Made by a program: the position numbers and the translations under genes. Below are positions 1 through 12,811 of a DNA stretch of 12,811 bases, in pieces (position 1 is the first letter of the stretch; every line of letters begins with the position of its first letter). The notes under the pieces are model-generated. The model saw only the letters and a program-made list of their open reading frames with translations. It was not told the DNA's origin and did no database searches. The DNA comes from a virus (lineage: Duplodnaviria; Heunggongvirae; Uroviricota; Caudoviricetes), in IMG/VR virus record IMGVR_UViG_2609459798_000004; one strand, written 5' to 3'.

Positions 1-2
1 CA

Positions 3-227
3 GGAAACACGACCCGCTTTATCAGTGGACACTTCCCTATACCATTCCCTAATCAGCCGATGGTTTCAGTCAGTGTTATGTCTGATGCCGTTCAGTCAGA
101 CCCGTCGAATCCTGCCCCGCAGGTTTTGTCTGTAAATTTTGAACATATCAGTAATTCAGCGTGGCGTGTGGCAACCAGTGATATCTCACAGCAATACAGA
201 TTCAGTTATATTTCGATAGGACGGTAG
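3..227 (+). CDS. Tail-fibre protein, C-terminal variable segment of the cassette currently in the plus orientation; 5' end lies outside the window
   Basis: Frame 3 is open from the window edge for 75 codons to TAG at 225-227 (not in the ORF track because it lacks a long Met-initiated stretch). It ends 2 bp before the ATG of the tail-fibre assembly gene, the usual fibre-then-chaperone arrangement. Position mirrors the minus-strand fibre cassette at 1244-1795. No family match recognised by eye, so identity rests on context. Confidence 0.45.
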   Translation, partial: GNTTRFISGHFPIPFPNQPMVSVSVMSDAVQSDPSNPAPQVLSVNFEHISNSAWRVATSDISQQYRFSYISIGR

Positions 228-229
228 AA

Positions 230-670
230 ATGCAGAAATATATTTTCAGTGCCGATAAAAATGCGTTTTTCCCTGTGGAGCTTAAAATCGCTTATCAGGA
301 ATCCGGCGAATGGCCCGGTGATGGAATCGAAATTGACGACACTGTTGCCGCCGAATTTATGAAGGAAGCACCAGAAGGAAAATACAGAGGTGTCATCGAC
401 GGAATGCCTGCATGGATTGATATTCCACCGCCAACTCATGAGGAACAAATTGCCGCAGCCGAACTGGAAAAGCAGCAATTGATTAATCAGGTCAACGAAT
501 ACATAAACAGAAAGCAATGGCCTGGTAAAGCGGCGATTGGTCGCCTGAAAGGTGGGGAACTGGCGCAATATAATTTGTGGCTGGATTATCTGGACGCACT
601 GGAACTGGTCGATACTTCCGGTGCGCCAGATATTGAATGGCCTACGCCTCCGGCAGTTCAGGCCAGATGA
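230..670 (+). CDS. Tail-fibre assembly protein (Tfa / P2 gpG-like chaperone)
   Basis: 146-aa ORF; AGGA-type SD upstream of ATG 230. C-terminus ...LWLDYLDALELVDTSGAPDIEWPTPP resembles the conserved C-terminal motif of Tfa-family chaperones as I recall it. Sits immediately downstream of the fibre C-terminal cassette. Confidence 0.8.
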   Translation: MQKYIFSADKNAFFPVELKIAYQESGEWPGDGIEIDDTVAAEFMKEAPEGKYRGVIDGMPAWIDIPPPTHEEQIAAAELEKQQLINQVNEYINRKQWPGKAAIGRLKGGELAQYNLWLDYLDALELVDTSGAPDIEWPTPPAVQAR

Positions 671-1244
671 CGTCTGGCGCTGTGCTGGTATCTGTTGCCG
701 TCACCGCGTCAATATAATCCAGCACAGCGTTAAGTCGGGTGTTTTCTGGCTGCGTCAGCTTCCGCCCGGCCTGTAATTTCAGCTGAATCAGACTGATGGA
801 AGCCATTGCAGCATCAATCAGCGACTGGCGCTGTGCTTCTGCCGCTTCTACTGCGGCGCTATGCTGTGCCTCGGTATCCGTCACCCATTTCTCACCATCC
901 CATTTATCGTATGGCGTTAACGGGGCGATAGTGGTTGTATTTTCAGGATAATCACCCGGAGCTGTGATTTCTTTCGATTCTCCTGTTTCGGTGCTATAGA
1001 TGATTTCACCGCGATGGTCTGGCACATATTCCCATGAGTTAAAATCTGCAGAACGGCAGATTGCATAACCAGCTTTATGTGTAACTGGTGCATCTAAACA
1101 AGAACATGCCGGGATACCGACGCCAACCGCAAGATATTCAGTTGATGTGGAAATATATTCCCGCGTTTCACCATCATAATTATAAATGGTAATGACTCCC
1201 GCTTTTATGGCAATGAGTTCGTTATTTAATACGGCTTTATTCAT
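642..1244 (-). CDS. Alternative tail-fibre assembly protein (Tfa') of the opposite-orientation cassette
   Basis: 200-aa ORF on the minus strand. C-terminus ...AVLDYIDAVTATDTSTAPDVIWPELPEA matches the Tfa-family motif. N-terminus MNKAVLNNELIAIKAGVITIYNYDGE... is, from memory, TfaE-like (e14 element). Its 3' end overlaps the plus-strand tfa by 29 bp (642-670), convergently. Confidence 0.8.
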   Translation of the reverse strand: MNKAVLNNELIAIKAGVITIYNYDGETREYISTSTEYLAVGVGIPACSCLDAPVTHKAGYAICRSADFNSWEYVPDHRGEIIYSTETGESKEITAPGDYPENTTTIAPLTPYDKWDGEKWVTDTEAQHSAAVEAAEAQRQSLIDAAMASISLIQLKLQAGRKLTQPENTRLNAVLDYIDAVTATDTSTAPDVIWPELPEA

Positions 1245-1795
1245 CAGGCAGCCCTCACGATATAATTAAAGGCAATGTTACGAGGACGGTTTTCGTTTGC
1301 AGTTGGAACAATTCTTGAAGCATCAAGGCCAATCACTTTTGGGTAAACAGCGCCATCTGTTCTTTCTGTCACCATACTTCTGATTAAGGAGAAATAACTA
1401 TTGTTCGTTGAGGGGTTCAAAGGCACTACTGCCCCCTTAAACGAGCCTACTGATTCCCATATTGAATAATTTTCGGTGTTTACAGTCTTGAACTCACCAT
1501 AGATATTACGTATGGCATCGCCCTGAGCGGATAATATTGCCCTCCCCGTATCCATACCACGTCCGTCATCCCAGCCACGAATAAACTCACCACGTAAATC
1601 AGGCAATTTATTTGTCGGGTAAGCCTTTGCCAGCTCCGGGTATTCTTCAGCAGAAAAAGCTGCTCCGTTGCATTTCAGCCAGCCTGTTGGCGGAGTGGCT
1701 GAAGGCCACGGAACAGGCACCCCAACAGGTAATGCAGAGCCTTCTCCCAAACCAACGTTTAAGAAAATGCAGAGGTAACAGCTAACTGGCATCAT
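1244..1795 (-). CDS. Alternative tail-fibre C-terminal variable cassette (Sv'-like); promoterless in this orientation, and the real reading frame enters at the crossover site near 1767
   Basis: 183-aa minus-strand ORF. Sequence ...GSALPVGVPVPWPSATPPTGWLKCNGAAFSAEEYPELAKAY... and C-terminus ...RNIAFNYIVRAA are typical of Mu S / P1 S / e14 StfE-type fibre tips as I recall them. Its stop (1244-1246) overlaps the start of Tfa' (ATGA). A hix-like crossover site lies within codons about 10-18, so the annotated Met is probably not the true N-terminus. Confidence 0.7.
   Translation of the reverse strand: MMPVSCYLCIFLNVGLGEGSALPVGVPVPWPSATPPTGWLKCNGAAFSAEEYPELAKAYPTNKLPDLRGEFIRGWDDGRGMDTGRAILSAQGDAIRNIYGEFKTVNTENYSIWESVGSFKGAVVPLNPSTNNSYFSLIRSMVTERTDGAVYPKVIGLDASRIVPTANENRPRNIAFNYIVRAA
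1742..1767. other. Candidate 26-bp recombination (crossover) site for the serine invertase (hix/gix/cix-like)
   Basis: TTCTCCCAAACCAACGTTTAAGAAAA: two imperfect 12-bp inverted half-sites (TTCTCCCAAACC / revcomp TTTTCTTAAACG) around a central AA dinucleotide. Compare hixL TTCTTGAAAACCAAGGTTTTTGATAA and gixL TTCCTGTAAACCGAGGTTTTGGATAA as recalled from memory. Located about 55 bp upstream of the invertase gene and inside the 5' end of the minus-strand fibre cassette, as in the Mu G and P1 C segments. Confidence 0.55.
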
Positions 1796-1822
1796 CTCCG
1801 GTTTTTATCCAGGGGGATGATC

Positions 1823-2389
1823 ATGCTTATTGGCTATGTACGCGTGTCAACAAATGACCAGAACACCGATTTGCAACGTAATGCACTGAACTGCGCGGGA
1901 TGTGAGCGGATTTTTGAGGACAAAATCAGTGGCACTAAGTCCGACAGACCGGGGCTGAAAAAACTACTCAGGACACTATCGGCAGGAGACACGCTGGTTG
2001 TCTGGAAGCTGGACAGGTTGGGGCGCAGTATGCGGCATCTTGTTACGCTGATAGAAGAGTTGCGCCAGCGTGGTGTGAATTTCAGAAGCCTGACTGACAG
2101 TATTGATACCAGTACCCCAATGGGCCGTTTCTTTTTTCATGTCATGGGTGCCCTGGCTGAAATGGAACGCGAACTGATAGTTGAACGTACCAGGGCGGGG
2201 CTGGCTGCAGCTCGTGATAAAGGCAGAGTAGGTGGACGCCGTCCTAAGTTGACCACCGAACAGTGGGCACAGATTGGACGCTTACTCGAGGCCGGAGAAT
2301 CAAGACAGCGTATTGCACTGATTTTTGATGTGGGTGTTTCCACAATTTATAGAAAATTTCCGGCAAATAAGAGTAATGAATCCCCCTGA
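1823..2389 (+). CDS. Serine site-specific DNA invertase (Pin/Gin/Hin/Cin family)
   Basis: N-terminus MLIGYVRVSTNDQNTDLQRNAL with the catalytic serine in VRVSTNDQ; conserved VVWKLDRLGRSM, GRFFFHVMGALAEMERELI and C-terminal HTH (GVSTIYRKF). The ORF track starts at ATG 1817, but AGGGGG at 1811-1816 gives good SD spacing only for ATG 1823, which also matches the family N-terminus. Confidence 0.9.
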   Translation: MLIGYVRVSTNDQNTDLQRNALNCAGCERIFEDKISGTKSDRPGLKKLLRTLSAGDTLVVWKLDRLGRSMRHLVTLIEELRQRGVNFRSLTDSIDTSTPMGRFFFHVMGALAEMERELIVERTRAGLAAARDKGRVGGRRPKLTTEQWAQIGRLLEAGESRQRIALIFDVGVSTIYRKFPANKSNESP

Positions 2390-2437
2390 ATCAGCATTAT
2401 TTTGATTATCCCTGCAAGCAGACAAATACCGTCATTT

Positions 2438-2455
2438 TGTGTGAATAACGGTACA
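2438..2455 (+). promoter_or_regulatory. Candidate Ogr-dependent late promoter element (TGT-N12-ACA dyad) upstream of FI
   Basis: TGTgtgaataacggtACA at 2438-2455, about 80 bp upstream of the FI start codon. P2 late promoters (PP, PO, PV, PF) carry a TGT-N12-ACA activator site centred near -55. No strong -10/-35 hexamers were identified by eye, so this is tentative. Confidence 0.3.
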
Positions 2456-2531
2456 ACTGCGCTTAGCTGTTTGTCAGGCACAATCACTTCAACATAGGGC
2501 GAAGCCTAATCCAATCAGGAGGTTCGCCACT

Positions 2532-3704
2532 ATGGCTCAGGATTACCACCACGGGGTGCGCGTTGTTGAAGTCAACGAAGGTACCCGATCCATTACCACG
2601 GTGAGCACCGCCATCGTGGGCATGGTCTGCACGGGCGATGATGCCGATGCAAAAATGTTTCCTCTTAATAAACCCGTGCTGATCACTGATGTGCTGACTG
2701 CCAGCGGTAAAGCGGGTGAGTCCGGCACGCTGGCCCGTTCGCTGGATGCCATCTCTGACCAGGCAAAACCCGTGACCGTTGTTGTGCGTGTGCCGCAGGG
2801 TGAAACGGAAGAAGAAACCACGACCAATATCATCGGCGCAGTGACTGCTGAAGGTAAAAAAACAGGCATGAAAGCCCTGTTATCTGCCCAGACACAGCTC
2901 GGCGTTAAACCGCGCATTCTCGGCGTGCCAGGTCACGATAACAAAGCCGTTGCGACTGAGTTGCTGAGTGTGGCGCAAAGCCTGCGTGGGTTTGCCTACC
3001 TGTCAGCGTATGGCTGCAAGACGGTACAGGAGGCGATCACTTACCGTGAAAACTTCAGCCAGCGCGAAGGAATGCTGATCTGGCCCGACTTTACTGGCTG
3101 GGACACGGTGCTGAATGCCGAAGCAACGGCATATGCCACCGCCCGTGCGCTTGGTCTGCGTGCCAAAATTGATGAGCAGACCGGGTGGCACAAAAGCCTG
3201 TCCAACGTGGGCGTGAACGGTGTCACCGGAATTTCTGCAGATGTGTTCTGGGATCTGCAGGACCCGGCAACCGATGCAGGTCTGCTGAACCAGAACGACG
3301 TCACCACGCTTGTGCGTAAAGACGGTTTCCGCTTCTGGGGTTCCCGCTGCCTGAGTGATGACCCGCTCTTTGCCTTCGAAAACTACACCCGCACGGCGCA
3401 GGTGCTGACGGACACAATGGCAGAAGCGCACATGTGGGCAGTGGACAAACCGCTGAACCCGTCGCTGGCGCGCGACATTATCGAGGGCATCCGCGCCAAA
3501 ATGCGCAGCCTGGTCAGTCAGGGGTATCTCATTGGTGGTGATTGCTGGCTGGACGAGTCGGTGAACGACAAAGACACTCTGAAAGCCGGAAAACTCACCA
3601 TCGACTACGACTACACGCCAGTGCCGCCACTTGAAAACCTGATGTTGCGTCAGCGCATCACCGATCAGTACCTGGTGAATTTCGCCAGCCAGGTCAGCGC
3701 GTAA
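2532..3704 (+). CDS. FI: Contractile tail sheath protein (P2 gpFI-like)
   Basis: 390-aa ORF with strong SD (AGGAGG) 6-7 nt upstream. Size and N-terminus ([39 protein letters not shown]...) match P2 FI sheath as recalled. Followed directly by the tube gene. Confidence 0.9.
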
Positions 3705-3713
3705 GGGGACAAC

Positions 3714-4229
3714 ATGGCTTTACCACGCAAATTAAAACACCTGAACCTGTTTAACGACGGGAACAACTGGCAGGGGATCGTTGAGTCGCTGACGCTGCCG
3801 AAATTCACCCGCAAATATGAGAAGTATCGCGGTGGCGGAATGCCGGGGGCAGTGGATGTGGATCTGGGGCTTGATGACAGTGCGCTGGACACAGAATTTA
3901 CCATTGGTGGTACTGAACTGCTGCTGTTTAAGCAGATGGGCAAAGCCACGGTGGATGGCATCCAGTTGCGCTTTACCGGCTCTATCCAGCGTGACGATAC
4001 CGGGGAAGTGCAGGCCGTGGAGCTTGTGGTGCGTGGACGTCACAAAGAAGTGGATTCCGGTGAGTGGAAGACGGGCGAAAGCAACACCACCAAAGTGACC
4101 AGTACCAACAGCTACGCGAAGCTGACCATCAATGGTGAGGTGCTCTATGAAGTGGACCTTATCAACATGGTGGAAATTGTGGACGGTGTGGACCTGATGG
4201 AAGCGCACCGCAACGCCCTCGGCCTCTGA
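3714..4229 (+). CDS. FII: Tail tube protein (P2 gpFII-like)
   Basis: 171-aa ORF 9 bp after FI, SD AAGGGGA. N-terminus MALPRKLKHLNLFNDGNNWQG... and size match the P2 FII tube protein as recalled. Confidence 0.9.
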   Translation: MALPRKLKHLNLFNDGNNWQGIVESLTLPKFTRKYEKYRGGGMPGAVDVDLGLDDSALDTEFTIGGTELLLFKQMGKATVDGIQLRFTGSIQRDDTGEVQAVELVVRGRHKEVDSGEWKTGESNTTKVTSTNSYAKLTINGEVLYEVDLINMVEIVDGVDLMEAHRNALGL

Positions 4230-4283
4230 TATATCTGAACGGCGCGGGATACCGCGCCAGAACCCAATTGACAGGACAGCAAA

Positions 4284-4586
4284 ATGAGCGATAAGCAGAC
4301 TGAAAAGACCATTCAACTGGATACCCCCATCAAGCGCGGTAAAACAGAAATCACCGAAATTGTGCTGCGTAAACCGCAGTCCGGTGCGCTGCGCGGTACA
4401 CGCCTGCAGGCCATTATGGATATGGATGTAAACGCGATGATGACCGTGATCCCCCGCATCTCCAGTCCGGCACTGACTGCACAGGAAATTGCAGAGATGG
4501 ACCCGGCAGATCTCACTGCCATGTCGGTTGAGGTTGTCACTTTTTTGTTGAAGAAGTCGGTGCTTGCCGGTTTACCGACAGCCTGA
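4284..4586 (+). CDS. E: Tail assembly chaperone gpE (zero-frame product)
   Basis: 100-aa ORF between tube and tape-measure genes, the position of P2 E. Contains a TTTTTTG slippery site near its 3' end. Confidence 0.8.
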   Translation: MSDKQTEKTIQLDTPIKRGKTEITEIVLRKPQSGALRGTRLQAIMDMDVNAMMTVIPRISSPALTAQEIAEMDPADLTAMSVEVVTFLLKKSVLAGLPTA

Positions 4587-4720
4587 CGGTTGACGATCTG
4601 GTGGCAGATATCGCCACCATTTTTCACTGGCCGCCATCCGTTACTGACGTTATGCCGCTGACCGAAGTGCTGGAATGGCGGTATAAAGCGATTCAGAGAA
4701 GCGGGGCCAACGATGAGTGA
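4284..4720 (+). CDS. Tail assembly chaperone gpE+E' produced by programmed -1 ribosomal frameshift
   Basis: After a -1 shift at T TTT TTG (4541-4547) the -1 frame stays open for about 58 codons (FFVEEVGACRFTDSLTVDDLVADIATIFHWPPSVTDVMPLTEVLEWRYKAIQRSGANDE) to TGA at 4718-4720, overlapping the T start codon (4713). Geometry matches the conserved P2 E/E' (lambda G/GT-like) frameshift. Confidence 0.6.
4541..4547 (+). other. Slippery heptamer TTTTTTG for the -1 frameshift in E
   Basis: T TTT TTG read in the E frame as ACT TTT TTG; the same heptamer is the P2 E/E' frameshift site as recalled. Confidence 0.6.
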
Positions 4721-7700
4721 TAACAACCTGCGTCTGCAGGTCATTCTTAATGCGGTTGACAAGCTCACCCGCCCATTTCGATCTGCGCAGGCCAGTTCAA
4801 GAGAACTGGCTGCTGCTGTCAAAAAATCCCGCGATGCAATAAAGCAGCTTGATCAGGCCGGGAGCAGTCTGGACAGCTTCCGAAAGCTGCAGGCAGAAAA
4901 TCAGAAATTAGGCGACAGGCTGAACTATGCCCGCCAGCGTGCAAATTTGCTCAGTCAGGAACTGGGAGCGATGGGGCCGCCTTCGCAACGTCAGGTTGTT
5001 GCTCTGGGCCGTCAACGGCTGGCTGTTCAGCGCCTGGAAGAACGCCAGAAAAAGCTGCAGCAGCAGACGGCGCTTGTGCGTGCTGAACTGTACCGGGCGG
5101 GAATTTCTGCGAAAGACGATGCGGGAGCAACTGCCCGTTTAGCCCGTGAAACATCACGTTATAACCAGGAACTTTCGAAACAGGAGGCGCGGCTGAAGCG
5201 ACTGGGGGAAGCTCAGCGCAGGATGAATGCAGCGCGTGCCAGTTATGCCCGTTCGCTGGAGGTGCGTGATCGTATTGCAGGTGCCGGAGCCACCACCACG
5301 GCTGCAGGGCTGGCAATGGGTGCGCCAGTGATGGCGGCAGTAAAAAGCTATACCAGCATGGAAGATGCCATGAAAGGTGTGGCAAAGCAGGTCAATGGTC
5401 TGCGTGACGATAATGGCAACCGCACTGCACGTTTTTATGAAATGCAGGATGCCATCAAGGCTGCCAGCGAACAGTTGCCGATGGAAAACGGTGCGGTGGA
5501 CTTCGCTGCACTGGTTGAAGGTGGTGCGCGCATGAACGTCGCAAACCCTGACGACAGCTGGGAAGATCAGAAACGTGACCTGCTGGCCTTCGCCAGTACG
5601 GCAGCAAAGGCGGCAACAGCCTTTGAGCTGCCAGCGGATGAACTGTCAGAAAGTCTGGGGAAAATCGCCCAGCTCTACAAAATCCCCACCCGCAATATTG
5701 AACAGCTCGGTGATGCGCTGAACTATCTGGATGATAACGCCATGTCGAAAGGGGCAGACATCATTGATGTGATGCAACGTCTGGGCGGTGTGGCTGACCG
5801 TCTGGATTATCGTAAAGCGGCGGCGCTGGGTTCCACCTTCCTGACACTGGGCGCTGCGCCAGAGGTTGCAGCCAGTGCAGCAAACGCGATGGTGCGTGAA
5901 TTGTCCATTGCCACCATGCAAAGCAAGAGTTTCTTTGAAGGGATGAATCTGCTGAAACTCAATCCTGAAGTGATTGAAAAGCAGATGACGAAGGATGCGA
6001 TGGGAACTATCCAGCGTGTGCTGGAGAAGGTGAACGCACTGCCGCAGGACAAGCGTCTGTCTGCCATGACCATGTTGTTTGGTAAAGAGTTTGGTGATGA
6101 CGCGGCGAAACTGGCAAACAACCTTCCGGAACTGCAGCGCCAGCTAAAACTGACAGCGGGCAATGATGCGCTCGGTTCCATGCAGAAAGAATCCGACATC
6201 AACAAGGACTCACTTTCTGCTCAGTGGTTGCTGGTTAAAACCGGAGCGCAGAATACCTTCAGCAGCCTGGGCGAAACGCTGCGCCAGCCGCTGATGGATA
6301 TTCTGTACACGGTGAAAAGCATTACGGGGGCGTTGCGCCGCTGGGTGGAAGCTAACCCGGAACTGACAGGCACACTGATGAAAGTAGCGGCTGTTGTGGC
6401 TGCGGTTACCGTAGGCCTCGGCACCTTAGCGGTGGCGCTGGCTGCAGTGCTGGGGCCGCTGGCAGTGATCCGTCTGGGATTCTCTGTGCTGGGTATCAAA
6501 ACGTTACCTTCCGTTACGGCAGCAGTAACTCGAACCAGCAGCGCGTTGTCCTGGCTGGCTGGAGCACCACTGGCACTGCTGCGACGCGGGCTTGCTTCAT
6601 CGGGCAACGCCGCAGGTTTACTTACTGCGCCGTTGTCGTCTTTGCGCCGCACGGCATCACTGACGGGAAATGTCCTGAAAACTGTAGCAGGTGCGCCGGT
6701 TGCACTGTTGCGGTCTGGATTATCCGGTTTACGTGCGGTTGCTGTGATGTTTATGAATCCATTGGCAGCACTACGCGGCGGGCTGGCTGCCGCAGGCACG
6801 GTGCTGCGAGTACTGGCATCTGGTCCACTAGCGATGTTGCACGTTGCCCTGTATGCCGTATCTGGTCTGTTAGGTGCTCTGCTTAGTCCGATAGGTCTTG
6901 TGGTTACTGCACTGGCGGGGGTGGCACTGGTTGTCTGGAAATACTGGCAACCCATCACCGCATTTCTCGGTGGCGTGGTGGAAGGATTCAAAGCGGCGGC
7001 AGGTCCCGTCAGTGCAGCGTTCGAACCGCTTAAGCCTGTGTTCCAGTGGATTGGCGACAAAGTGCAGGCGCTATGGGGCTGGTTTACTGATCTGCTGACG
7101 CCCGTTAAGTCGACCTCTGCCGAACTGCAGAGCGCAGCGGCAATGGGGCGACGATTCGGGGAGGCACTGGCGGAAGGGCTGAATATGGTTATGCATCCGC
7201 TGGACTCCCTGAAATCCGGCGTTTCCTGGTTGCTGGATAAACTCGGCATTGTCAGTAAAGAGGCTGCAAAGGCGAAACTGCCGGAAAGCGTGACGCGTCA
7301 GCAACCTGCGACGGTGAATGCAGACGGTAAAGTAATGATGCCATCGGGTGATTTTCCGTCATGGGGATATGGCTTTGCGGGGATGTATGACAGCGGCGGC
7401 TATATCCCGCGCGGGCAGTTTGGCATCGTCGGTGAAAACGGGCCGGAAATTGTTAACGGCCCGGCAAACGTGACCAGCCGGAGAAATACAGCTGCACTGG
7501 CTGCCGTTGTCGCCGGAATGATGGGTGTTGCTGCCGCGCCAGCAGAGCTTCCACCGTTGCATCCTTTGGCGCTTCCCGCAAAAGGCGGTGAAGCGATGGT
7601 GAGTCGTGCAGCTACTGTGCCGCCCATTTACCGGATTGAAGCACCGACGCAGATCATCATCCAGACACAGCCAGGACAAAGTGCGCAGGATATTGCGCGG

Positions 7701-7790
7701 GAGGTGGCCCGCCAGCTTGATGAACGTGAACGCAGGCTGAAGGCAAAAGCCAGGAGTAACTACAGCGATCAGGGGGGATACGACGCATGA
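4713..7790 (+). CDS. T: Tail tape measure protein (gpT-like)
   Basis: 1025-aa ORF. N-terminal region is coiled-coil-like (charged, Q/R/L-rich). Middle has hydrophobic Ala/Leu/Gly-rich segments with degenerate repeats (PLALLRRGL, PVALLRSGL, PLAALRGGL). C-terminal ...YDSGGYIPRGQFGIVGENGPEIVNGPANVTS is typical of tape-measure C-termini. Located between E/E' and U. Confidence 0.9.
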   Translation: MSDNNLRLQVILNAVDKLTRPFRSAQASSRELAAAVKKSRDAIKQLDQAGSSLDSFRKLQAENQKLGDRLNYARQRANLLSQELGAMGPPSQRQVVALGRQRLAVQRLEERQKKLQQQTALVRAELYRAGISAKDDAGATARLARETSRYNQELSKQEARLKRLGEAQRRMNAARASYARSLEVRDRIAGAGATTTAAGLAMGAPVMAAVKSYTSMEDAMKGVAKQVNGLRDDNGNRTARFYEMQDAIKAASEQLPMENGAVDFAALVEGGARMNVANPDDSWEDQKRDLLAFASTAAKAATAFELPADELSESLGKIAQLYKIPTRNIEQLGDALNYLDDNAMSKGADIIDVMQRLGGVADRLDYRKAAALGSTFLTLGAAPEVAASAANAMVRELSIATMQSKSFFEGMNLLKLNPEVIEKQMTKDAMGTIQRVLEKVNALPQDKRLSAMTMLFGKEFGDDAAKLANNLPELQRQLKLTAGNDALGSMQKESDINKDSLSAQWLLVKTGAQNTFSSLGETLRQPLMDILYTVKSITGALRRWVEANPELTGTLMKVAAVVAAVTVGLGTLAVALAAVLGPLAVIRLGFSVLGIKTLPSVTAAVTRTSSALSWLAGAPLALLRRGLASSGNAAGLLTAPLSSLRRTASLTGNVLKTVAGAPVALLRSGLSGLRAVAVMFMNPLAALRGGLAAAGTVLRVLASGPLAMLHVALYAVSGLLGALLSPIGLVVTALAGVALVVWKYWQPITAFLGGVVEGFKAAAGPVSAAFEPLKPVFQWIGDKVQALWGWFTDLLTPVKSTSAELQSAAAMGRRFGEALAEGLNMVMHPLDSLKSGVSWLLDKLGIVSKEAAKAKLPESVTRQQPATVNADGKVMMPSGDFPSWGYGFAGMYDSGGYIPRGQFGIVGENGPEIVNGPANVTSRRNTAALAAVVAGMMGVAAAPAELPPLHPLALPAKGGEAMVSRAATVPPIYRIEAPTQIIIQTQPGQSAQDIAREVARQLDERERRLKAKARSNYSDQGGYDA

Positions 7791-8272
7791 TGATGGTGCT
7801 GGGATTGTACGTGTTTATGCTGCGCACCGTGCCGTATCAGGAGCTGCAGTATCAACGCAGCTGGCGACATGCGGCAAACAGCCGGGTAAACCGACGTCCG
7901 TCCACGCAGTTTCTGGGACCGGACAACGACATGCTGACGCTTTCCGGTGTTCTTATGCCGGAGATAACAGGCGGCAGGCTGTCGTTGCTGGCACTGGAGC
8001 AGATGGCAGAACAGGGGAAAGCATGGCCCCTGATTGAAGGCAGTGGCACGATTTATGGCATGTATGTGATTGAGGGACTGAATCAGACTAAAACGGAGTT
8101 TTTCCGCGACGGTATGCCGCGCCGGATTGAGTTCACCCTGTCGCTCAAACGGGTGGATGAATCCCTGTCCGATATATTCGGTGATCTCAGTGCGCAACTG
8201 AATAATCTGCAGGACACAGCAACGTCTGCCTTAAGCGATATCAGTAAAACGGTGGGAGGGCTGCTGTCATGA
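7787..8272 (+). CDS. U: Tail protein gpU-like
   Basis: 161-aa ORF overlapping the T stop (ATGATGATG). N-terminus MMMVLGLYVFMLRTVPYQELQYQRSWRH... resembles P2 gpU as recalled; ...WPLIEGSGTIYGMYVIEGLNQTKTEFFRDGMPRRIEFTLSLKRVDE is conserved in the family. Confidence 0.85.
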   Translation: MMMVLGLYVFMLRTVPYQELQYQRSWRHAANSRVNRRPSTQFLGPDNDMLTLSGVLMPEITGGRLSLLALEQMAEQGKAWPLIEGSGTIYGMYVIEGLNQTKTEFFRDGMPRRIEFTLSLKRVDESLSDIFGDLSAQLNNLQDTATSALSDISKTVGGLLS

Positions 8273-9369
8273 ATTTCAGCTCTGAACTGCTTAACAAAGG
8301 CAACAAAACTCCCGCATTCAGCATCAGTATTGAGGGCAGGGATATCACCACTGTGCTGGATAACCGCCTGATGAGTTTGACGCTGACGGACAATCGGGGC
8401 TTTGAAGCGGACCAGCTTGATCTGGAACTGGACGACGCCGACGGAAAAATCGTGCTGCCGCGCCGTGGTGCGGTTATTACGCTGGCGCTGGGCTGGAAGG
8501 GGCAGCCGCTTTTCCCGAAAGGGGCATTCACGGTGGACGAGATTGAACACACTGGCGCACCGGACCGCCTGACTATCCGGGCGCGAAGTGCTGATTTTCG
8601 TGAAACGCTGAATACCCGCCGTGAAAAGTCGTGGCACAAGACCACCGTCGGGGAAGTGGTGAAGGAAATAGCTGTGCGGCACAAACTGAAGATGGCATTG
8701 GGTAAAGACCTGTCAGATAAACCCGTGGAACATATAGACCAGACCAATGAGAGTGACGGCAGTTTTCTGATGCGGCTGGCGCGCCAGTACGGTGCTATTG
8801 CGTCGGTGAAAAATGGCAATCTGTTATTCATCCGGCAGGGACAGGGTAAAAGCGCCAGCGGTAAACCACTACCGGTTATCACTATCACACGTAAGGACGG
8901 CGACAGTCACCGCTTTACCCTGGCAGATCGCGGAGCCTACACGGGCGTAATTGCCAGCTGGTTGCATACCCGCGAACCCGCGAAGAATGAAAGCACCACG
9001 GTGAAGCGTAAGCGCAGGACTAAGAAGCAGAAGAAAGAGCCGGAAGCGAAGCAGGGCGATTACCTGGTGGGTACAGATGAAAACGTGCTGGTACTTAATC
9101 GCACCTATGCCAACCGGAGCAACGCCGAACGGGCGGCGAAAATGCAGTGGGAACGCCTGCAACGCGGCGTTGCGTCATTCTCGCTACAACTGGCAGAAGG
9201 TCGGGCAGATCTCTACACGGAAATGCCAGTGAAAGTCAGTGGCTTTAAACAGCCGATAGATGATGCGGAATGGACCATTACGACTCTGACGCATACCGTC
9301 AGCCCCGATAACGGTTTTACAACCAGTCTGGAGCTTGAAGTGAGGATTGATGATTTCGAAATGGAATGA
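8269..9369 (+). CDS. D: Tail protein gpD-like (late control D / baseplate-hub family)
   Basis: 366-aa ORF overlapping the U stop by 4 bp (ATGA), in the P2 D position immediately upstream of ogr. Confidence 0.85.
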   Translation: MNFSSELLNKGNKTPAFSISIEGRDITTVLDNRLMSLTLTDNRGFEADQLDLELDDADGKIVLPRRGAVITLALGWKGQPLFPKGAFTVDEIEHTGAPDRLTIRARSADFRETLNTRREKSWHKTTVGEVVKEIAVRHKLKMALGKDLSDKPVEHIDQTNESDGSFLMRLARQYGAIASVKNGNLLFIRQGQGKSASGKPLPVITITRKDGDSHRFTLADRGAYTGVIASWLHTREPAKNESTTVKRKRRTKKQKKEPEAKQGDYLVGTDENVLVLNRTYANRSNAERAAKMQWERLQRGVASFSLQLAEGRADLYTEMPVKVSGFKQPIDDAEWTITTLTHTVSPDNGFTTSLELEVRIDDFEME

Positions 9370-9459
9370 TTCTTCGCAATGGAGAACTTTTAAGTTTGCA
9401 AAATGGAATAATGCGGTATCATTATTGTGAATTTAGCAAAAATGGGGAGAACTCGAAAA

Positions 9460-9678
9460 ATGATGATTTGCCCACTGTGTGGAAGTGCCGCCCATACTCG
9501 CAGCAGTTTTCAGGTATCTTCATTGACTAAAGAGCGTTACAACCAGTGCCAGAACATTAACTGCAGCCATACTTTTGTTACCCATGAAACTTTTGTTCGT
9601 TCGATTGCAACGCCAAAAGAGTCAAATCCGGTTCAGCCGCATCCAATGAAATCAGGACAGGTGGCGCTCTCTCTTTGA
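9460..9678 (+). CDS. ogr: Ogr/Delta-family zinc-finger late transcription activator
   Basis: MMICPLCGSAAHTRSS...YNQCQNINCSHTF has the C-x2-C-x22-C-x4-C zinc finger of Ogr. The ORF track starts at GTG 9427, but GGGGAGA (9445-9451) is placed for ATG 9460, giving about 72 aa as in P2 Ogr. Confidence 0.85.
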   Translation: MMICPLCGSAAHTRSSFQVSSLTKERYNQCQNINCSHTFVTHETFVRSIATPKESNPVQPHPMKSGQVALSL

Positions 9679-9758
9679 CGCTGCCGCCATTTTGTCGCCA
9701 TCGTTAAAAAACAGTGTTTCTAACATCATGATTTTAAACAGCTTAAATTTCAGGCAAC

Positions 9759-9801
9759 AAAAAACCCATCAACCTTGAACCGAAATGGCGGGGTTGATGG
9801 G
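9759..9801 (-). terminator. Candidate rho-independent terminator (minus strand), about 115 nt downstream of ybjL
   Basis: On the minus strand: CCCATCAACC, 17-nt loop, GGTTGATGGG, then TTTTTT (perfect 10-bp stem at 9765-9774 / 9792-9801, A-run on the plus strand at 9759-9764). No T-run follows on the plus strand, so it is not obviously bidirectional. Confidence 0.5.
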
Positions 9802-9913
9802 CTCCACAAAATGGGGACATCAAAGAAAAGCAGTGGCACTAATTAAGACTGATGCCCTGCGGAAAAGTTCTGCGGTTGTGCAAAAAAATTTCATTTTCAG
9901 GGCAACTTCAGTT

Positions 9914-11599
9914 TTATCCTAATCCTGGCCATACCATGACGATGATTGTCCCTGCCAGCGTCAGCAGGACGTTGGCGATTGCATAGGTGCCCGCATAGCC
10001 CAGCGCCGGGATGTTACTGCGAGCTGTATCACTGATGATCTCCATTGCCGGCGCGCAGGTACGTGCGCCCATCATTGCGCCGAACAACAGCGCGCGGTTC
10101 ATTCGCAATACATAAGCACCGAACAAGAAACAGATAACCACGGGCACCAGACTGACAATCAATCCGGCAATCAACATCTGACCGCCAATCGCGCCCAGGC
10201 CGTTATTAATACCGCTACCGGCGCTCAGACCAACGCCTGCCATAAACACCATCAAGCCGAACTCTTTCACCATGCTTAATGCACCCTGCGGAATGTAACC
10301 GAAGGTCGGGTGGTTAGCACGCATAAAGCCCAGCATAATTCCGGCGAATAACAACCCGGCAGCGTTCCCCATGCCGAAACTGAATGTGCTGAACTGGAAG
10401 GTGATCATCCCGATCATCAGCCCAATAACAAAGAAGGCGCAAAATGCCAGCAGGTCAGTGACCTGGCTGTGAATCGAGATAAAGCCGATGCGATCGGCGA
10501 TGGTTTTTACGCGACGGGCATCACCGCTGACTTGTAAAACGTCACCTTTGTTAAGCACGACGTTGTCATCTATCGGCATCTCAATCTGGCTACGAATGAC
10601 GCGGTTAAGGAAGCAACCGTGATCGGTCAACTTCAGTTGTGCGAGACGTTTACCTACAGCGTTATGGTTTTTAACGACCACTTCTTCAGTGACGATACGC
10701 ATGTCGAGAAGGTCACGATCGAAAACTTCTTTACCGTTACGGAAGCTGGGATCGAGTCGGGCATGGGCGTCGGGATAGCCTACCAACGCTATTTCATCGC
10801 CCATTTGTAGCACGGCATCACCGTCTGGATTTGCCAGAATCCCGTTACGTCGAATACGTTCAATGTAGCAGCCGGTTTGTCGATAAATACCCAGTTCACG
10901 CAGATTTTTGCCGTCGGTCCAGGCCACCAGCTCCGGGCCGACGCGATAGGCGCGGATCACCGGTAAATAAACCTTACGGTTGGCATCAGTGTCCAGGCCA
11001 CGTTCGCGGGCGATTTGCTGGGCGCTGGTCTGTAAGTCCTGATGCTGCAATTTCGGCAAGTAACGCGCACCAACAATCAAACTCACCAGACCGATTAAAT
11101 AGGTTAAGGCATACCCGAGGCTCAGATTATCCAGTGCCAGTGAGAGCTGCCTGCTTTCCATGCCGGAATGACGCAGTGTATCGCCAGCACCGACCAGAAC
11201 CGGTGTCGACGTCATAGAGCCTGCTAACATACCGGCCGTCAGGCCAATATCCCAGCCAAACAGCTTACCTAACCCTAAGGCGATCACCAGCGCACTGCCA
11301 ACCATCACCAGTGCTAACATTAGGTAATTTTTCCCATCGCGAAAAAAAATGGAAAAAAAGTTCGGTCCGGCTTCAACCCCAACACAGAAAATAAACAGCA
11401 TAAAGCCAAGATTAAGCGCATCGGTGTTAATGCTGAAATGTTGTTGGCCTAATAACAGCGATACGACTAAAACGCCAATGGAATTACCCAGTTGGATCGA
11501 ACCAAGTCGTAACTTTCCGAGACATAGCCCAAGCGCGAGGACCACAAATAATAACAGAATGTAATTCCCATTTAACAATTCGGCGACGTTTATATTCAC
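9914..11599 (-). CDS. ybjL: Putative transport protein YbjL (AAE/YidE-family membrane transporter)
   Basis: 561-aa ORF with GTG start; N-terminus [42 protein letters not shown]... and the hydrophobic / soluble-domain / hydrophobic layout match E. coli YbjL as recalled. Adjacent divergent ybjM fits the chromosomal gene order. Confidence 0.85.
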
Positions 11600-11868
11600 G
11601 GAGGCTAACTTCTTGTTTACTAGTAAGCTGTTGAAAGAAATGGTAATTTACGATAATGTTTTTTACCAGAATTCAGGGCGCAGATTCATTCAGCGCACCT
11701 AAACGATAGTAAAGTAACAATATATTTTACTAGTGTAATCACATTAGGTATCAACGGCTATATGAATTGCGTTGGCCTATATTAGCATGGAATGCGAAGC
11801 GGCTTTATCTTACTGAACGCCACACTGGCGAAAAATGTGTTCGATAGACGCAGTGTCAGGAGGAACGA

Positions 11869-12246
11869 GTGAAACATAAACAACGTTGGGCGGGGGCAAT
11901 CTGCTGTTTTGTCCTCTTCATTGTGGTGTGCCTTTTTCTGGCGACGCACATGAAAGGCGCTTTTCGGGCTGCCGGGCATCCTGAAATCGGCTTGCTATTT
12001 TTCATTCTTCCTGGAGCAGTCGCCAGCTTCTTTTCACAGCGTAGAGAAGTCCTGAAACCTCTGTTTGGCGCAATGCTGGCGGCACCCTGTTCGATGCTCA
12101 TTATGCGGCTGTTTTTTTCACCGACGCGCTCATTCTGGCAAGAGCTGGCATGGTTATTAAGTGCGGTGTTCTGGTGTGCGCTGGGGGCACTGTGTTTCTT
12201 ATTTATCAGTAGTTTGTTTAAACCACAGCACAGAAAAAATCAGTAA
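11869..12246 (+). CDS. ybjM: Inner-membrane protein YbjM
   Basis: 125-aa hydrophobic ORF with GTG start 4 nt after SD CAGGAGGA; divergent from ybjL and followed by grxA on the opposite strand, as in the E. coli chromosome. Confidence 0.8.
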   Translation: MKHKQRWAGAICCFVLFIVVCLFLATHMKGAFRAAGHPEIGLLFFILPGAVASFFSQRREVLKPLFGAMLAAPCSMLIMRLFFSPTRSFWQELAWLLSAVFWCALGALCFLFISSLFKPQHRKNQ

Positions 12247-12425: not shown

Positions 12426-12811
12426 GGTAATGACTCCAACTTATTGATAGTGTTTTATGTTCAGATAATGCCCGATGACTTTGTCATGCAGCTCCACCGA
12501 TTTTGAGAACGACAGCGACTTCCGTCCCAGCCGTGCCAGGTGCTGCCTCAGATTCAGGTTATGCCGCTCAATTCGCTGCGTATATCGCTTGCTGATTACG
12601 TGCAGCTTTCCCTTCAGGCGGGATTCATACAGCGGCCAGCCATCCGTCATCCATATCACCACGTCAAAGGGTGACAGCAGGCTCATAAGACGCCCCAGCG
12701 TCGCCATAGTGCGTTCACCGAATACGTGCGCAACAACCGTCTTCCGGAGCCTGTCATACGCGTAAAACAGCCAGCGCTGGCGCGATTTAGCCCCGACATA
12801 GCCCCACTGTT
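12426..12811 (-). mobile_element. IS1 insertion sequence, IRR end (partial; continues beyond window)
   Basis: Begins GGTAATGACTCCAACTTATTGATAGTGTTTTATGTTCAGATAATGCCCGATGAC..., matching the IS1 right terminal inverted repeat as recalled, followed by the insB coding region on the minus strand. Confidence 0.9.
12441..12811 (-). CDS. insB: IS1 transposase InsB, 3' portion (5' end outside window)
   Basis: Minus-strand frame is open from the window edge: ...[122 protein letters not shown]-stop, matching IS1 InsB as recalled. The ORF track shows only the Met-initiated part, 12441-12707. Confidence 0.85.

Follow-up and report, generated by a model that had tools for sequence, protein, structure and literature searches.

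The arrangement of a tail-fibre inversion switch, probably a working one, in a P2-like prophage of Escherichia coli

Invertible tail-fibre segments of the Gin/Pin type have long been in the textbooks, with Mu, P1 and e14 as the classical cases. The order in and around the Mu G segment is Sc-gixL-Sv-U-U'-Sv'-gixR-gin, and the P region of e14 in E. coli K-12 is organised as stfP-tfaP / tfaE-stfE / pinE. Classical P2 has the order H-G-fun(Z)-FI; its single H-G pair is fixed, as stated in the reading of this DNA from its sequence alone (the sequence-only reading), fun(Z) comes next, and an invertase is absent. Among P2-like phages the switch is already common, annotated and experimentally documented. 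In Escherichia phage pro483 a module arranged like the present one, with the order H, tfa, tfa' (minus strand), collar tip (minus strand), invertase and sheath lies between a P2 I-type gene and FI. Inversion has been shown or inferred in Fels-2, which has an invertible fibre gene with the adjacent invertase Fin (PMC7953296), and in the P2-like prophages of EPEC E2348/69, where it was demonstrated experimentally (PMC4272514). One EPEC prophage contains three repeats and four variants, whereas only two sites were seen in the prophage family described here. Surveys of the P2 Z/fun hotspot have also recorded modules of this kind. The biology itself is therefore not new, and the value of the present locus lies in annotation and host-range prediction.

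The window, the whole 12,811-nucleotide stretch of DNA that was analysed, very probably carries a Gin/Pin-type DNA-inversion switch with two alternative tail-fibre tips in a P2-like (Peduovirus) prophage of E. coli. Positions 1-2389 comprise the right-hand ~1.76 kb (~93%) of an invertible tail-fibre segment of ~1.89 kb, together with the serine invertase gene. The P2 late tail genes are present in P2 order, namely FI, FII, E/E', T, U, D and ogr, as indicated by comparison with P2 and by Pfam matches to the sheath, tube, Phage_TAC_7, tape measure, GpU, GPD and Ogr_Delta families, and the tail genes visible in the window are complete. This tail order and the family of the fibre N-terminal domain are those of classical P2; however, the slot of fun(Z) is occupied by a second cassette and the invertase. 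Because the exact source genome was absent from the complete E. coli genomes searched, the region left of the window was studied in relatives, in which the upstream DNA encodes P2 capsid and terminase genes. The closest complete E. coli genome is 97.5% identical over the entire window, with best-match figures ranging from 97.5 to 98.9%. The prophage is integrated beside rybB/ybjL in E. coli, and a copy of IS1 (window 12441-12707) is located near it.

The architecture was compared with the sequences of the Mu G segment and the e14 P region. The succession of constant fibre part, site, tip, tfa, tfa', tip', site and invertase follows the Mu G and e14 P type, in line with the sequence-only reading. 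All five genes have the order and orientation found in e14, which shares the 29-bp convergent overlap of the tfa genes and has a right site only one base different. The corresponding products are 91% (TfaE), 86% (PinE), 58% (StfE) and 55% (TfaP) identical, so the earlier description of the minus-strand cassette as StfE/TfaE-like was correct. However, the fibre of the defective element e14 is a short remnant of 209 aa, whereas the fibre considered here has a full P2 H-type N-terminus and belongs to an otherwise complete-looking tail operon. The Mu system is alike in mechanism and layout, and its invertase Gin aligns over the full length with 75% identity. It differs in the size of the segment (~3 kb), in a GA/TC core dinucleotide, in its unrelated tips and in a Mu-type rather than P2-type virion backbone, and its chaperones are only about 30% identical to those of the window, in part only. 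The peduoviruses known to possess the module (pro483, Salmonella phage MET_P1_103_31, Fels-2 and the EPEC E2348/69 prophages) differ from the present prophage in cassette combination, allele of the constant region and integration site.

The four cassette ORFs and the invertase ORF listed in the sequence-only reading (3-227 and 230-670 on the plus strand, 642-1244 and 1244-1795 on the minus strand, 1823-2389 on the plus strand) were recovered at these coordinates with the expected domains. Positions 1-227 on the plus strand (ORF 3-227) are the 3' end of the expressed variable part, Sv, of fibre gene H and encode a gp53-like C-terminal tip (Pfam Gp53-like_C). The score of this tip is below the cutoff solely because the window truncates the ORF, and the full-length relative passes. 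Gene H starts about 1.18 kb left of the window; in one relative (L001) the complete gene at 10821-12227 corresponds to window positions -1179 to 227, and the constant part in relatives contains the full P2 H-type N-terminus with a Phage_tail_fib domain. The expressed tip is followed by its tail-fibre assembly chaperone, Tfa (230-670, plus strand; Caudo_TAP, E 8e-33), which is the TfaP-like protein of the above comparison. On the opposite strand a silent TfaE-like chaperone (642-1244; Caudo_TAP, E 5e-32; aligned with e14 TfaE over 200 aa) overlaps this gene convergently by 29 bp. It is preceded by the silent alternative tip, Sv', a StfE-like cassette at 1244-1755 on the minus strand with a Collar domain (E 8e-16). 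In an NCBIfam scan no model gave a name to the fibre tips or the chaperones.

The silent cassette lacks a start codon and starts exactly at the recombination site, from which its reading frame is open for 169 codons up to the stop. Only inversion, by joining it to the constant part of H, allows it to be read. The ORF at 1244-1795 does contain this cassette, but its first ~13 codons (bases 1756-1795) are located outside the invertible segment and are an artefact of ORF calling. A scan of positions 1-2600 for promoters and terminators gave counts not above shuffled expectation and no convincing promoter for either the invertase or the silent cassette. The minus-strand 183-aa "phage tail protein" is a promoterless cassette and not an independent gene.

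The right recombination site, of the hix/gix/pix type, occupies positions 1742-1767 and consists of TTCTCCCAAACC, a central AA at 1754-1755, where the crossover is placed, and CGTTTAAGAAAA. The 26-mer, TTCTCCCAAACCAACGTTTAAGAAAA, is present in a single copy in the window, had no match in 200 shuffles and, as noted above, is one base away from the e14 site adjoining pinE, in accordance with the hix-like site proposed earlier at this position. Its offset from the invertase start, -81, is constant in nearly all of 80 related loci. A second hix-like site was detected in the window neither with up to three mismatches allowed nor by a half-site scan, since the partner falls outside the window. In close relatives this left site precedes window base 1 by 118-143 bp and lies inside gene H, where it overlaps the codons for AYLGLGE. 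It is present in all five of the E. coli prophage relatives examined (L001-L005), each with exactly two sites, and in most IMG/VR loci. The central dinucleotide is TT in the left site and AA in the right one, and the two cores are therefore identical when read as an inverted pair. An inverted partner within the fibre gene had been predicted and does exist in relatives, but ~0.13 kb rather than 0.3-0.5 kb upstream, and with an outer half TTCTCGCATACC in place of the proposed TTTTCTTAAACG. Judging from these relatives, the source genome itself should also carry the left site.

Inversion of the segment in silico produced an in-frame fibre of 519 aa, and this fused form corresponds to an annotated fibre gene of strain MB19 (8522-10081). 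Each fused form has been annotated as a gene, in different genomes, and the two have different C-terminal Pfam domains. The synthetic flipped sequence was matched in one piece by strain MB19, with 100% coverage and 97.2% identity. Among complete E. coli genomes, at a coverage of at least 80%, 28 match the flipped form and 25 the window form, while the IMG/VR loci with a TfaE-like cassette include 22 in the window orientation and 14 in the flipped one. The segment of MET_P1_103_31 is likewise in the flipped state. A single orientation in all reads would, for the sequence-only reading, have marked a fossil; complete genomes and IMG/VR loci show both orientations in the prophage family, the strain itself being known here in one state. 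In strains LD22-1 and LD26-1 the prophage occupies the same site and has identical flanks of 9,569 and 9,645 bp, between which a 1,870-bp segment is inverted exactly at the central dinucleotides. The pair was not accepted as the product of one pure inversion event, as the segment also contains 6 clustered SNPs. Another pair of relatives (L012 and L025) was rejected as isogenic owing to 497 mismatches after flipping. Since any one assembly shows only one of the two states, it does not suffice to identify the receptor-binding tip of this prophage family.

The gene at 1823-2389 on the plus strand encodes an intact serine DNA invertase of the Gin/Pin/Hin/Cin family, with Resolvase (E 7e-53) and HTH_7 (E 1e-15) domains. 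Residues 1-184 align end to end to the Gin structure 3UJ3/4M6F (E 3e-93), and the catalytic Ser9 is present in the motif VRVSTNDQ; the enzyme is full length, and the damaged catalytic motif named in the sequence-only reading as another sign of a fossil was not found. The residues of Hin that contact Fis and the enhancer are Q151/R154/L155 and the basic residues at 47/48/51 (PMC3798978). In an alignment to the Hin DNA-binding domain (1HCR), Q151/R154/L155 correspond to Q150/R153/L154 of the invertase, and its helix-B sequence LKKLLR contains the basic residues K46, K47 and R50.

A candidate recombinational enhancer with two Fis sites is located at the 5' end of the invertase gene (1844-1915). 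A pairwise comparison of synonymous conservation over this region with pinE, gin and the MET_P1_103_31 invertase gave mixed results and was replaced by a diversity profile of 72 unique homologues. Synonymous diversity is lowest in codons 9-14 (1847-1864) and 26-31 (1898-1915), and the sole stretch of 12 nt or more without any variation is a 14-mer at 1850-1863. The two patches are ~51 bp apart, the first being ~100 bp from the hix centre, and the Hin enhancer has comparable spacing and a distance of ~100 bp from its site (PMC3798978). The low variation in the two patches is suggestive of an enhancer at 1844-1915, reduced synonymous variation being possible at the 5' end of any gene.

According to the proposed mechanism, the invertase would bind two inverted, imperfectly palindromic 26-bp sites, at 1742-1767 and at the upstream partner inside H. 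Strand exchange would take place at the central TT/AA dinucleotide, probably in a complex formed on an enhancer that is bound by Fis and located within the first ~100 bp of the invertase gene. Inversion may depend on Fis and the enhancer, as in related systems of this family. In the window state the constant N-terminal part of H would be joined to the gp53-like tip ending at 227, followed by Tfa (230-670). In the inverted state the same constant part would continue in frame into the Collar/StfE-like tip (1755 to 1244), with the TfaE-like chaperone (1244 to 642) next in line. The constant part can be joined in frame to either tip because the crossover site is located within the fibre gene. A lysogen population could then release virions with either receptor-binding tip, which would constitute host-range bet-hedging if the two tips differ in receptor specificity. 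With the parts in place, a frame-preserving geometry, an intact enzyme and both orientations occurring naturally, the arrangement is real and the switch probably works.

It is unlikely that the source genome contains a locked fossil, in which loss or mutation of the left site, or a defect of the prophage, would prevent inversion or leave it without consequence. The left site lies beyond the window edge, the IS1 copy at 12441-12707 is near the prophage, and a decayed example is provided by strain CFSAN051542, with an IS1 inserted in the segment. Nevertheless, the four cassette ORFs and the invertase are all intact, the silent tip is open from site to stop, every one of the five E. coli prophage relatives examined carries the left site, and the tail genes in view are complete.

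Even less probable is a role of the module in the service of the host, whereby this invertase or a trans-acting one of the Pin family would generate a chimeric StfE-type protein blocking the adsorption of other phages. Such an effect is reported for the e14 P segment, where PinQ acting on StfE2 blocks adsorption of T2 (PMC12529663). The resemblance of the silent tip and its chaperone to e14 StfE and TfaE agrees with this role, and the sites are nearly those of e14, which makes cross-reaction of Pin-family enzymes plausible. However, the cassettes are part of an apparently complete P2-type late tail operon, and the late tail operon of P2 is silent in lysogens. In addition, pro483 and MET_P1_103_31, both deposited as complete phage genomes, contain the module. 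The notion of two static convergent fibre operons, with the invertase as unrelated cargo of the Z/fun hotspot, can practically be dismissed, for although a variety of cargo is found in this slot among P2-like phages (bioRxiv 10.1101/2024.10.15.618418), the cassette of the minus-strand tip lacks a start codon and starts right at the recombination site, the scan of 1-2600 found no promoter-like sites above chance, and the two orientations with their precise junctions already contradict it.

The invertible segment was probably acquired in mosaic fashion. The sequence-only reading had described positions 230-1800 as AT-richer than the tail genes to the right, and the contrast holds for the segment, with 47.3% GC for 1-1755 versus 55.8% for 2532-9369. 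The segment is 99.9% identical to that of the Salmonella peduovirus MET_P1_103_31, while on either side of it the identity drops to 55-90%, and identical Tfa proteins occur in an unrelated non-P2 prophage carrying pinE. Together, composition, the shared segment and the shared Tfa proteins support the mosaic exchange suggested earlier. The 99.9% block starts about 45 bp before the left site and ends 7 bp beyond the centre of the right one. There is a slight chance that the segment represents a self-contained cassette exchangeable between diverged phages, with limits set by the recombination sites themselves. If the invertase did exchange cassettes intermolecularly, the usual cis-only rule for such enzymes would be broken. 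Homologous recombination in short conserved flanks is an alternative route for cassette exchange.

On the plus strand, the window opens with a 5'-incomplete fibre tip (Gp53-like_C, ending at 227), which scores below the domain cutoff only because the window cuts the ORF; the full-length gene of a relative passes. It is followed by a Caudo_TAP tail-fibre assembly chaperone gene, tfa (230-670). The minus strand carries a second Caudo_TAP chaperone (642-1244) and an ORF with a phage tail Collar domain (1244-1795), and a plus-strand gene (1823-2389) encodes a Resolvase and HTH_7 protein, the invertase. Downstream of the invertase lie P2-type sheath, tube, E chaperone, tape measure, U, D and Ogr genes, in an order identical to that of phage P2. 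The ORF listing and domain scans thus bear out every element named in the sequence-only reading, and its contrast with classical P2, in which H and G are followed by fun(Z) and no invertase is present, also stands. The two convergent chaperone genes share the same 29 bp overlap in the window (642-670), in the e14 locus (L007 3518-3546) and in the pro483 locus (L011 3738-3766), so that a single short stretch codes for both C-termini on opposite strands.

The 26-mer at 1742-1767 occurs once in the window and is absent from all shuffles. It is the only recombination site that the window holds, since base 1 falls within the invertible segment. Against 5,426 complete genomes of E. coli, the best match of the window is 97.5-98.9% identical, and in close relatives the same prophage occupies an identical chromosomal position. 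One of them is NZ_CM151387 (98.9% identical over window 1-2500); its fibre gene, H, starts 1,179 bp before window base 1, with the partner site, TTCTCGCATACC TT GGTTTAGGAGAA, at 118-143 bp upstream of that base. An inverted partner had been predicted and does exist in the relatives, but its predicted position and outer half were off. A half-site scan of five E. coli prophage relatives, e14, Mu and one Salmonella peduovirus found exactly two sites per locus. The left one has TT at its centre and the right one AA (TC and GA, respectively, in Mu), so that, read as an inverted pair, both sites have the same core. In H, the left site overlaps codons for AYLGLGE, and the minus-strand ORF across the right site reads ...NVGLGEGSALPVG.... 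In-silico inversion at the central dinucleotides yields an unbroken 519-aa fibre with the Collar tip, indicating that the first ~13 codons of the ORF at 1244-1795 (1756-1795), which lie outside the segment, are an ORF-calling artefact and that the N-terminus first assigned to the silent tip is spurious.

The synthetic flipped sequence matches strain MB19 in one piece (100% coverage, 97.2% identity), and in that strain the annotated fibre is this fused gene. At a coverage of at least 80%, 28 complete genomes match the flipped form and 25 the window form. Strains LD22-1 and LD26-1, in which the prophage adjoins ybjL, have identical protein accessions throughout and identical flanking DNA over 9,569 bp on the left and 9,645 bp on the right. 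The 1,870-bp segment between these flanks has opposite orientations in the two strains, with breakpoints precisely at the central dinucleotides, and one polymorphic base of the inner half-site moves together with its cassette. The pair also differs by six SNPs within 270 bp of the Collar/StfE-like tip (L004 9688-9958, compared with L005) against 19.2 kb of identical flanks, and more than one event must therefore separate the two strains. Such clustering suggests either patchy gene conversion by a paralogous cassette at another genomic location or an artefact of polishing. IMG/VR contributes 80 loci that encode a close homologue of the invertase; in nearly all of them the right site keeps a constant distance of -81 from the start of the invertase gene, which is also the spacing in the window. 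Both orientations occur among the 36 loci that have a TfaE-like cassette (22 as in the window, 14 flipped). Taken with the three small corrections concerning the position of the partner site, its outer half and the silent-tip N-terminus, the proposed interpretation is supported: this is a Gin/Pin-type invertible fibre switch, very probably active in this prophage family, the window itself showing one site only.

Some loci depart from this arrangement. Three IMG/VR loci (L033, L038 and L062) contain 3-4 hix-like sites each, and the site at -81 in L058 has an H-type outer half-site; these loci may represent variants with several segments, comparable to the four-state EPEC locus, or else copies that are rearranged or misassembled. 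In strain CFSAN051542 (NZ_CP020835.1 1253769-1257745), an IS1A is inserted inside the invertible segment, disrupting the switch.

Compared with PinE and Gin, the invertase shows 86% and 75% identity, respectively; its residues 1-184, including the catalytic serine (Ser9), align with Gin crystal-structure sequences (E 3e-93). Residues Q150, R153 and L154 align onto Q151, R154 and L155 of the Hin DNA-binding domain, and helix B carries the basic residues K46, K47 and R50; these Hin residues and basic helix-B positions are reported to be specific to Fis/enhancer-dependent invertases (PMC3798978). Pairwise codon comparisons over the presumed enhancer in the invertase gene had no clear outcome. Across 72 unique homologues, with the first few codons excluded, the two 6-codon windows of lowest diversity are codons 9-14 (1847-1864) and 26-31 (1898-1915). 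The sole invariant run of at least 12 nt in the 72 unique genes, gin and pinE included, is ACAAATGACCAGAA (1850-1863); it spans the codons that follow Ser9 and is a candidate for a Fis site. The low-diversity patches are ~51 bp apart, the first ~100 bp from the centre of the right site, a spacing that fits the geometry described for Hin (PMC3798978) and is consistent with a candidate enhancer within the invertase gene.

The segment has a lower GC content (47.3%) than the tail genes (55.8%), in agreement with the AT-richness noted earlier. Identity to e14 is 91% for the silent chaperone (to TfaE) and 58% for the silent tip (to stfE). The whole segment is 99.9% identical (1753/1755 bases) to that of Salmonella phage MET_P1_103_31, which carries it in the flipped state; when the two are made colinear, identity is 98-100% within the segment and falls beyond it to ~90% and then 55-80%. 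A non-P2 contractile-tail prophage near pphA (L092 6532-9376) encodes the same tfa and tfaE protein accessions together with pinE, with a short 231-aa fibre ahead, and this locus shows a tfa/tfaE cassette pair common to different phage types. The likeness to e14, the near-identity to MET_P1_103_31 between diverged flanks and the shared Tfa proteins indicate that unrelated phages have exchanged the segment as a module, in line with the sequence-only reading. In the comparison with MET_P1_103_31, the first right-hand mismatch is at 1762, seven bases beyond the crossover centre, and on the left high identity begins ~45 bp outside the site. Swapping of the segment between phages at its recombination sites, which has some novelty, and ordinary homologous recombination in short conserved flanks are equally compatible with these data.

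Neither the invertible fibre switch as a kind of element nor the context in which it occurs here is new. The same layout is already deposited for pro483, a classified peduovirus, and in Salmonella, Fels-2 pairs an invertible fibre gene with an adjacent invertase, Fin (PMC7953296). In two P2-like prophages of EPEC E2348/69, phase variation by inversion was detected from sequencing read patterns (PMC4272514), the PCR confirmation in that study being quoted for the e14 locus. For this hotspot, a survey of P2-like phages mentions both invertases and neighbours in inverted orientation (bioRxiv 10.1101/2024.10.15.618418). All five genes are annotated by RefSeq in hundreds of genomes, and, of the 5,426 complete genomes, ~522 contain 80% or more of the 12.8-kb window.

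At the right end of the prophage, the RybB small RNA gene is located at 9756-9834 on the minus strand (Rfam, 105 bits). Homology to K-12 starts exactly at the rybB 3' end, so that the right prophage junction (~9755/9756) abuts the rybB terminator, suggesting that the 3' end of an sRNA gene serves as the integration site of this P2-like phage. An IS1 transposase fragment (DDE_Tnp_IS1, E 6e-48; 12441-12707, minus strand) directly follows ybjM, a position occupied by grxA in most related genomes.
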